From the IMG/VR virus record IMGVR_UViG_2529292909_000007, positions 1 to 19,664 of that record: a stretch of 19,664 nt of DNA; one strand, 5' to 3'. Source of the stretch: a virus. Taxonomy: Monodnaviria; Loebvirae; Hofneiviricota; Faserviricetes; Tubulavirales; Inoviridae. This document shows, piece by piece, positions 15,251 to 16,945 of this stretch (position 1 is its first letter; each line of letters opens with the position of its first letter). Position numbers and translations under genes: made by a program. The notes beneath the pieces were generated by a model, which ran no database searches, was not told where the DNA came from, and saw nothing but the letters and a program-made list of their open reading frames with translations.

Positions 15251-16945
15251 TCAGGATTTAAGAACAATAAAAAACGCCATCATGGATGCAACCAGTGTCA
15301 TCACAACACGAAAGGTATTACGTACCGATTCGGTATCAAGCAATGTACAGAACTGATCCATAGTGTAATCCCGATCCCAGATATGAAAGGTAAATACAGG
15401 ACAGGTTCCGGCAGGAATGGACACAGAAAAATCACGCGCTTCAGGCCACATATCCCACAGAGGCGTAATTATCTGAGAACCGGATGGCGGAGAGTTAATA
15501 TCAGGAACAGCAACAGAAGGAGCATTACCAAAATTCAGTTTAACTTCCGGTTCGACATTAACATCAACATTCACATTAGCCGTTCCGGAACCCTGAACCT
15601 GAACATCAACATTCGCGCCATTTGCCGTTGTCGTTCCTGTCGCTGTACCTGTACCTGTACCAGTGCCTGTTCCCGTTCCGGTGCCTGTTCCGGTGCCTGT
15701 ACCTGTACCTGTTCCGGTGCCTGTACCTGTTCCGGTACCTGTTCCCGTTCCGGTACCTGTACCCGTTCCGGTACCTGTACCCGTTCCGGTGCCTGTACCC
15801 GTTCCGGTACCTGTGCCTGTGCCTGTTCCGGTGCCTGTACCCGTTCCGGTACCTGTACCCGTTCCCCCCGAAGGCACAGGAGGCGTATATTTGCCGCCAG
15901 AATCAGCATCATCACCATCTGTAGTAGCAGGAAGACCAAGAGCAGATGAAGAATCAGTAAACCCCAGAGAATCAGAGCTAAAATCATCATTCGACGAGCG
16001 CCATGACTCCACATCAGCCGCAGAGAACGTCACCGGTACATTGTTGTAATAACCAGAACTACCCGCCTGTTCTGAAAGACCATTAAGCACCGTTGCAACA
16101 TCCTGAGAATCAAGCGTAAGCCCGTTAATATACCCGTCAGCAGAAGAAAAACTCACAGGGTCAGTTGTCGCTTTTTCACAGGCATAAGATGAGGAACCCG
16201 CAGACCTGACAGCGATTTCACCATTATCACAGAGAGGATAATCATCAGCACCTGAAGCAGACATAAGCCCCAAAGGACATGCACTGTTATAAGTCACAAG
16301 AACAGAACGAAGTGAATATCTGGTTTCCCCCGTGCTCGGATGCACCCCATTTGGACAGGAAAAAACCCAGGTAGCTGAATCATGAGACAATGAAGAACGA
16401 ACCAGAGGGCAACCACTGTAACCATTAACAGAAGCCATTTTGGCCAGAGCAGACCACGGCGACGTACTGTAAACACCTTCGCTTTGACTGATAACCCCGC
16501 ACCAGTAATTACGATTTGATGACGTCATCGCAGGCGTGGAATAAGTCACATCCCAGCCATTCGCAGAAAGCGCCAGATCAGCAACGTATTTAGCCGCAGG
16601 CTCACCAACAACATATAAGCCAAGAGCAGCAGAAGAAACGCCAAGACCATAAGCCAGATTCCCCCACGACAACCCCGCAAGCGGGACACCTGCACGGGCA
16701 GCATAACCCGCTGCATAATCCGCAGCAGCCTGAGAATAGGCTTTTACTGTCGTTGCGATCGCAGCAGTATTTGCCCCCAGAGACGCCAGTTTTGACGTAA
16801 GAACACCCGTTAACTGGCGCTGAAAATCAGAGACCGGCGCCTGTTCAGCCGTCTGACTGAATGCCAGCGCATCAAAAGAATAAAAAGAGCCACAGGAAAG
16901 AAAAATAACAGGAAATATTTTATTAAAGCGAAAGGATAAAAACAT
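15251..16945 (-). CDS. pIII-like adsorption / minor coat protein (564 aa) with long Gly-Thr linker
   Basis: Signal peptide, Cys-containing N-terminal domains, about 37 Gly-Thr dipeptide repeats, C-terminal membrane anchor; GAGG RBS; position after gVIII. Confidence 0.7.
15642..15865 (-). repeat. imperfect hexanucleotide tandem repeat encoding (Gly-Thr)n within gIII
   Basis: Plus strand reads (NGT NCC)n, e.g. cctgtacctgtaccagtgcctgttcc; the minus-strand reading frame gives GTGTGT... with third-position variation. Confidence 0.9.

Follow-up and report, generated by a model that had tools for sequence, protein, structure and literature searches.

Receptor-binding proteins of inoviruses carry a Gly-rich linker between their receptor-binding and C-terminal domains (PMC12477597). 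In f1, the linkers of the adsorption protein pIII are disordered and invisible in cryo-electron microscopy, the N1-N2 domains move freely, and a beta-hairpin that precedes the buried C-terminus is held by C354 and C371 (PMC10175506). Here, a 19,664-nucleotide stretch of inovirus DNA (IMG/VR record IMGVR_UViG_2529292909_000007; hereafter the window), which is the entire 19.7-kb draft contig AIFY01000031.1 of Escherichia coli assembly GCA_000249655.2, was analyzed with respect to a run of 37 consecutive Gly-Thr pairs in the 564-residue product of a prophage gene. The tract represents the known linker of inovirus tip proteins in an extreme, Gly-Thr form; it evolves as an 18-nucleotide (nt) coding minisatellite and is not a new kind of system. 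It probably acts as a disordered spacer by which a receptor-binding N-terminal part is tethered to a C-terminal domain (C-domain) that anchors the protein in the virion.

The window gene occupies the same slot as the genes of the Ff (M13, f1, and fd) pIII and of other inovirus receptor-binding proteins, and its product resembles pIII in the succession of signal-peptide-like sequence, N-terminal part, Gly-rich linker, C-domain with a predicted beta-hairpin bracketed by two cysteines, and terminal hydrophobic helix (PMC10175506; PMC12477597). Short tandem peptide repeats, (E/G)GGGS, make up the M13 linkers as well. By contrast, the window tract is a Gly-Thr dipeptide repeat with 50% Thr that spans 74-83 residues, whereas M13 has pentapeptide repeats in two linkers of ~20 and ~40 residues. 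The window protein has one linker, lacks a detectable N1 domain (PF05357), and has a C-domain that is only marginally alignable to M13 g3p. That the linker is longer and more regular than those of Ff pIII had been proposed in a first-pass annotation of the window, and these lengths bear it out.

The Thr-Gly region of Drosophila period is likewise a perfect dipeptide run written in ACN GGN / GGN ACN cassettes with silent third-position signatures, and its alleles differ by duplication or deletion of (Thr-Gly)3, an 18-nt cassette (PMC4109182). It evolves rapidly, diverges in composition between species, and is predicted to form a flexible stretch between globular regions (PMC4109182). The resemblance is one of analogy and not homology, the protein, organism, and role (temperature compensation of the clock) being unrelated, and natural alleles mostly have 14-23 pairs compared with 37 in the window tract. 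In the Ser-Asp R region of the staphylococcal ClfA, Fbl, and Sdr proteins, dipeptide and hexapeptide repeats are encoded by variable numbers of 18-bp units, substitutions are mostly synonymous, copy number varies among strains, and the region lies between a ligand-binding domain and an anchoring C-terminus (PMC6533592). This region differs in its acidic residues, Gram-positive host, and cell-wall anchor; its repeats are also known to be glycosylated (PMC3794999), whereas nothing suggests glycosylation of the window tract. Gain and loss of cassettes by slippage or unequal recombination is established for both the period Thr-Gly and the staphylococcal Ser-Asp repeats (PMC4109182; PMC6533592).

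A perfect (TG)30 run with mixed synonymous codons, placed between two non-repetitive parts, was also found in a tailed-phage metagenome sequence (OX376640.1), but its flanks are unrelated to those of the window tract, the virus is tailed, and the 79% nucleotide match is limited to the repeat. Long Thr-Gly linkers therefore recur in phage proteins. The OX376640.1 protein (530 residues; positions 2091-3683, minus strand) is uncharacterized, has six hexamer types in its repeat, and matches PHROG 8424, of unknown function, with its C-terminal part. In the literature searched, there was nothing relevant on Gly-Thr or Thr-Gly repeats of filamentous phages.

Structure of the Gly-Thr tract

A script run on the translation counted exactly 37 consecutive Gly-Thr pairs (residues 361-434), in agreement with the earlier estimate of about 37. 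The tract had previously been placed at 15642-15865 with no strand given; the end is exact, the start is 2 nt off and lies at 15644, and the tract is on the minus strand. There is no replacement over the 74 residues encoded by its 222 nt. When flanking residues are included, the stretch composed only of Gly, Thr, Ser, and Ala covers 83 residues (359-441). Such a tract is not producible by chance.

Every hexamer of the tract has the form GGN ACN, with positions 1, 2, 4, and 5 constant in 37 of 37 and variation at positions 3 and 6 only. Seven hexamer types are present, which implies at least six substitutions, all of them synonymous. The description of the DNA as an imperfect 6-bp repeat is thus literally right; a stronger periodicity was, however, found at 18 nt. 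Tandem Repeats Finder returned a period of 18 with 11.9 copies, 81% matches, and a score of 241, and the longest exact self-match was 12 nt at period 6 versus 29 nt at period 18. Arrangement of the codons in rows of six reveals the cassette GGA ACG GGT ACA GGY ACC, and the tract DNA is better described as ~12 copies of this 18-nt unit than as a 6-bp repeat. Codon usage differs from that of the rest of the prophage: GGA accounts for 35% of Gly codons inside the tract versus 10% outside, GGG for 0% versus 27%, and ACA for 51% of Thr codons versus 26%. This bias fits amplification of one ancestral cassette.

The longest exact repeat inside the window tract is 32 nt, compared with 36-77 nt in the tracts of related prophages, and among five tracts compared that of the window has the least internal DNA identity. 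The purest protein repeat is therefore the most scrambled at the DNA level. This low identity fits the earlier proposal that codon variety damps replication slippage, and likewise mis-assembly, although it does not prove it.

We suggest that an 18-nt cassette encoding three dipeptides was amplified to give a coding minisatellite, the cassettes of which would be gained, lost, and homogenized through slipped-strand mispairing or unequal recombination. Such turnover would give each prophage lineage its own cassette and copy number, and selection at the protein level would keep the tract small, polar, and in frame. Plus-strand open reading frames (ORFs) across the tract, for example (PV)n at 15663-16049, were dismissed as by-products of the repeat. 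The propensity of the tract to form hairpins as single-stranded DNA was unremarkable (z = -1.73; 8 of 200 shuffles folded equally well).

Regions flanking the tract

The prophage genes on the minus strand are arranged in the order G2P/X remnant, gene V, coat-like gene, the 564-residue gene, DUF2523 (pVI-like), Zot (pI), and secretin (pIV), which agrees with the M13 order II-X-V-VII-IX-VIII-III-VI-I-IV and therefore places the repeat-containing gene in the gene III slot (Table 1). The protein had no Pfam match at E <= 0.01 and no detectable TolA-binding N1 domain (PF05357, Phage_Coat_A), a domain that is a hallmark of Ff-type g3p and not of all inovirus adsorption proteins. NCBIfam gave a spurious low-complexity match only (TafF, at 18 bits versus a cut-off of 420). 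PHROG 7187 was matched by the tract together with the C-terminal part, and PHROG 3942 and 815 by the C-terminal part alone, all three being families of unknown function.

When 1.84 billion representatives were searched with a profile of the C-terminal 104-119 residues, 566 protein clusters were recovered. For the 150 hits listed, the match ends at the C-terminus or no more than 3 residues short of it, and most of the proteins have 400-600 residues. The two cysteines C515 and C533 are invariant in 132 members of the family. In an AlphaFold2 model built with 100 family sequences, these cysteines flank predicted strands at 518-522 and 525-529, a beta-hairpin that is followed by a long terminal helix, with predicted local distance difference test (pLDDT) values of ~70-94 in this region; the helix itself (539-563) was modeled at high confidence. 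The arrangement resembles that around C354 and C371 of f1 pIII (PMC10175506). A model based on a six-sequence alignment had a pLDDT of 33 and was unusable. Two family members contain segments that resemble Ff g3p N1 or N2.

Between the confidently modeled helices and strands on either side, nearly all of the region 340-445 has no secondary structure, and pLDDT is below 50 over 340-384 and 388-445. As in the linker definition used in PMC12477597, low-complexity Gly-rich residues (359-441) separate the N-terminal part from the C-domain. The signal-peptide-like N-terminus (ahead of FSQ) and the hydrophobic C-terminus were read directly off the translation. Together with the gene III slot and a C-domain family that is C-terminal throughout the hits listed, these features support the identification of the product as an adsorption protein made in the first-pass annotation. 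We accept it as a putative adsorption-type tip protein because synteny, topology, and motif agree; strict homology to Ff g3p is not asserted.

The tract would then be the interdomain linker of a gene III-type tip protein, hydrophilic and structureless over ~83 residues, and the C-domain would serve as the anchor of the protein, first in the inner membrane and then at the tip of the virion, with the N-terminal part presumably binding the receptor. The Gly-rich linkers of Ff pIII have this tethering role as well. By a standard-polymer estimate, 83 residues at ~0.36-0.38 nm each would reach up to ~30 nm, roughly double what the long M13 linker can span. The rule that inovirus receptor-binding proteins have a Gly-rich linker is extended to a Gly-Thr dipeptide form of about twice the length of the longer M13 linker, and the current view of how filamentous phages work is unchanged. 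The tract also marks the border between a swappable receptor-binding part and a conserved anchor, which is useful for mining inovirus receptor-binding domains.

The N-terminal part ends with an acidic Ser/Asp-rich stretch followed by the conserved motif KYTPPVP. Within it, residues ~40-115 (16600-16830, minus strand) were modeled confidently as Ala-rich helices (pLDDT 83-95) and contain a hydrophobic Gly/Ala-rich stretch that is the best-conserved piece across the E. coli and Salmonella homologues; this region is unlike Ff N1/N2, and fold searches gave no match. On the other side, just past the tract, residues 446-467 (15545-15610, minus strand) form a second low-complexity element in which Val alternates with polar residues. 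The homologues L001, L002, and P0001 keep this element, the Salmonella proteins have a shorter version, and L009 and L010 lack it; it explains part of the difference in motif-to-motif spacing described below.

The tract in related prophages

The gene family is rare, with homologues in only two of 5426 complete E. coli genomes. Further members came from a small number of E. coli, Shigella, and Salmonella drafts, one IMG/VR contig, and one metagenome contig. No complete E. coli genome has the P0003-type gene. Repeating the homology search without the tract yielded no further full-length relatives, a scan of genome contigs gave none, and a phage collection contained a single distant C-domain relative, Dulem virus 52.

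A tract rich in Gly, Thr, Ser, Ala, Glu, and Asp lies between PPV[PA] and ITPLWDMWP in every full-length homologue, and its cassette is lineage-specific. Where the window has (GT)37, L001 has (GS)6 (GT)10 and 8 GTGTAT units, L002 has (GS)15 (GT)13 and 5 GTGTAT units, L009 and L010 have 7 and 8 GTGTTT units, respectively, P0001 has STGEGT-type units, and the Salmonella proteins have 18-residue units rich in Thr, Gly, Ala, and Asp. For L001 and L002, GT pairs were counted up to the first AT, and each count takes in two pairs that belong to the first GTGTAT unit; without them the counts are 8 and 11. This is a clean coding minisatellite in a bacterial virus, in which each lineage builds the linker anew from its own 18-nt cassettes but retains its location and approximate length. 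Prophages of this family could be typed by their cassette pattern.

Two independent pairs of close relatives reveal the unit of change. L001 and L002, inserted at one and the same site, are 94-98% identical in their gene flanks, and their tracts differ by 6 versus 15 GS pairs (54 nt), 10 versus 13 GT pairs (18 nt), and 8 versus 5 GTGTAT units (54 nt). Between L009 and L010, with flanks 98.8-99.0% identical, the difference is one 18-nt TTGTGT cassette, and one Shigella fragment has one AG pair fewer (6 nt). Tract length is thus polymorphic, mostly in 18-nt steps. Length polymorphism had been predicted from the sequence of the window, and a comparison of homologues confirmed it: the Gly/Thr-rich tracts of five full-length relatives measure 83, 85, 91, 55, and 61 residues, and more distant ones differ again. 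What required revision was the unit, taken to be 6 bp and found to be mostly 18 nt.

Differences in repeat number between close relatives could also be expected of a contingency locus that switches the gene on and off by phase variation. This is extremely improbable here, as the units are 6 and 18 nt, every observed change is in frame, and no frameshifted allele occurs among the full-length homologues.

In the family of the C-domain, 51 of 132 full-length proteins have a low-complexity stretch of at least 20 residues. In 6 of the 132 it reaches at least 80 residues, and 4 of these 6 are the window protein, P0001, and two Salmonella proteins, which have a common N-terminal part. The next longest perfect dipeptide run among the 132 is 5.

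The distance from PPVx to ITPLW is 134 residues in the window protein, 136 in L001, 142 in L002, and 136 in P0001, despite the different cassettes of these three lineages, which hints at a length constraint. One extension of this observation is an evolvable molecular ruler, in which gain and loss of cassettes tunes the reach of the receptor-binding part to host surface layers such as O-antigen or capsule. We regard this as unlikely; if true, it would allow fast and reversible adaptation of prophages to new serotypes, and the spacing of 134-142 residues across three lineages with entirely different cassettes would be a signature of length selection. In addition, the Thr-rich composition might permit modification or protease protection.

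It is similarly doubtful that the tract is more than a passive spacer, either as a site of modification (for example, O-glycosylation of Thr) or as a structured chain of turns that acts as a ruler. The strictly Gly-Thr protein sequence and the similar motif spacing in three lineages would be consistent with such a role, and there are precedents in the modified Ser-Asp dipeptide repeats of staphylococci (PMC3794999) and in the “stretch of flexible turns” predicted for the Drosophila period Thr-Gly region (PMC4109182). Relatives, however, freely replace Gly or Thr with Ser, Ala, Thr, Glu, or Asp, such that the exact sequence is not required; no glycosyltransferase gene is present within the prophage, and the model has no structure at the tract.

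Several findings weigh against the disordered spacer of a tip protein. The N-terminal part has no match to a known receptor-binding domain in Pfam, PHROG (residues 1-359), PDB sequences, or fold searches. A comparison of the C-domain profile with PDB sequences gave nothing significant, and fold searches were likewise empty. M13 g3p was aligned only weakly to the C-domain by hhalign (P = 0.038, probability 1.4%), an alignment that sets the M13 g3p cysteines on the same columns as C515 and C533. The motif distance falls to 84-90 residues in L009 and L010 and to 118 in Salmonella, so a length constraint is not general and, if there is any, is lineage-bound. The window allele itself does not vary between its two carrier assemblies. 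Finally, the 5' part of the replication gene has been lost to IS1 in both carrier strains, and the protein may therefore not be made or used in the strain.

This last point, together with the scarcity of homologues in complete E. coli genomes, would also suit a functionless relic drifting in a defective prophage, the regularity of the tract reflecting recent expansion. That explanation is improbable. The 564-codon ORF is intact, and all hexamer variation is synonymous, which is unexpected under unconstrained drift. Recent expansion predicts identical units, whereas the seven hexamer variants and an exact repeat of no more than 32 nt were found. Moreover, all relatives retain the tract where it lies in the window protein, and some of them are prophages whose replication genes are intact. 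The disordered spacer remains the preferred reading.

Assembly behavior and prophage context

Two clusters of homologues comprise 49 sequences (35 + 14), and 29 of the 29 members listed are flagged “partial” in draft assemblies. Fourteen of these 29, from draft E. coli and Shigella, stop 0-18 residues past PPV[PA], at or just inside the tract, and account for 29 of 56 contig occurrences; the remaining 15 sequences end at earlier points in the gene. Conversely, a C-terminal fragment from the representative search (P0063) begins at the last residues of the tract, and the genes of L005 and L006 run into contig ends. The expected assembly trouble at the tract was therefore observed, in the form of contig breaks, frequent in short-read assemblies, rather than collapse. 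The tract explains why, in E. coli and Shigella drafts, contigs so often end in a gene annotated as a “partial hypothetical protein”.

These breaks, the draft status of the window contig, and single-base indels relative to a sister assembly raise the question of whether the tract, or its count of 37, is an artefact of a repeat collapsed or expanded during assembly. This is very unlikely. In a separately deposited assembly (GCA_000249675.2; AIFZ01000020.1, L003), the gene is identical at the DNA level, even though the two sequences, which are 99.93% identical over 14.4 kb, differ by eight single-base indels elsewhere. None of the indels is in the repeat gene; they lie at 5842, 6660, 9084, 13540, 17383, 17717, 17809, and 19485. 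In addition, with no exact internal repeat above 32 nt, ordinary reads are uniquely placeable, and two records filed as complete genomes have similar total tract lengths of 85 and 91 residues. The indels look like homopolymer sequencing errors. The secretin gene is split by the one at 13540 but whole (426 residues) in the sister assembly; others touch the MuB-like and coat-gene regions.

Many partial homologues (P0033, P0036, P0040, P0042, and P0043) end far ahead of the tract at one of two recurrent points, ...DGYINNLS in 13 contigs and ...AAWYYS in 4. In one assembly, three fragments derive from two slightly different copies, which suggests that some strains carry two related prophages and that assembly breaks where the copies diverge.

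Table 1. Coordinates of the repeat-containing gene, its parts, and neighboring prophage features in the window
Feature	Coordinates	Strand	Basis
Gene III-position gene, putative adsorption/tip protein, 564 residues	15251-16945	-	ORF translation; PHROG matches
N-terminal part, residues 1-358, putative receptor-binding region	15872-16945	-	Signal-peptide-like start; no family match
Whole low-complexity linker, SG-(GT)37-ATGTTTA, residues 359-441	15623-15871	-	Sequence and AlphaFold2 model
(Gly-Thr)37 tract, 37 GGN ACN hexamers, ~12 imperfect 18-nt cassettes	15644-15865	-	Translation, Tandem Repeats Finder, hexamer script
C-domain, residues 446-564, ITPLWDMWP motif, C515 and C533, terminal hydrophobic helix	15254-15610	-	Profile, alignment, AlphaFold2
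pIV-like secretin gene, split by 1-nt indel at 13540	12519-13798	-	Pfam, sister assembly comparison
pI-like assembly ATPase gene, Zot family	13801-14925	-	Pfam
pVI-like minor coat gene, DUF2523	14943-15230	-	Pfam, PHROG
Terminator-like hairpin between coat gene and gene III-position gene	17079-17099	-	Consensus scan only
Major-coat-like gene, pVIII-type	17107-17397	-	PHROG
Gene V-like single-stranded-DNA-binding protein gene	18280-18627	-	Pfam
Replication gene remnant, C-terminal 181 codons, G2P_X_C domain	18644-19190	-	5' part replaced by IS1

The IS1 copy that replaces the 5' part of the replication gene lies at 19230-19664 on the plus strand (InsA ORF, 19230-19529), and the same arrangement is present in the sister assembly. 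This prophage copy is probably replication-defective. An Rfam scan of 11400-19664 gave no match.

Next to the secretin end of the prophage, a fimbrial usher gene is reduced to its C-terminal 382 codons (10319-11467, minus strand; 11468-12500), and the prophage is inserted at a different site from L001 and L002, which are located between sanA and yeiS. Positions 1-9960 of the window are Mu-like prophage DNA that matches many E. coli genomes at 96-99.8% identity and includes a transposase gene (695 residues, 6664-8751), MuB-like genes (5780-6589), and tail genes. In four related prophages, an IS110-family transposase gene lies beside the replication gene at one prophage end (L001, 12330-13283; L002, 12348-13301; L005, 1790-2743; L006, 17-970) and plausibly encodes the integration enzyme. 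The replication module is of the Rep_trans type in L001, L002, and L006, of the Phage_GPA type in L005, and of the G2P type in the window. As the structural genes are shared and the replication modules differ, the latter appear to have been exchanged among related prophages.

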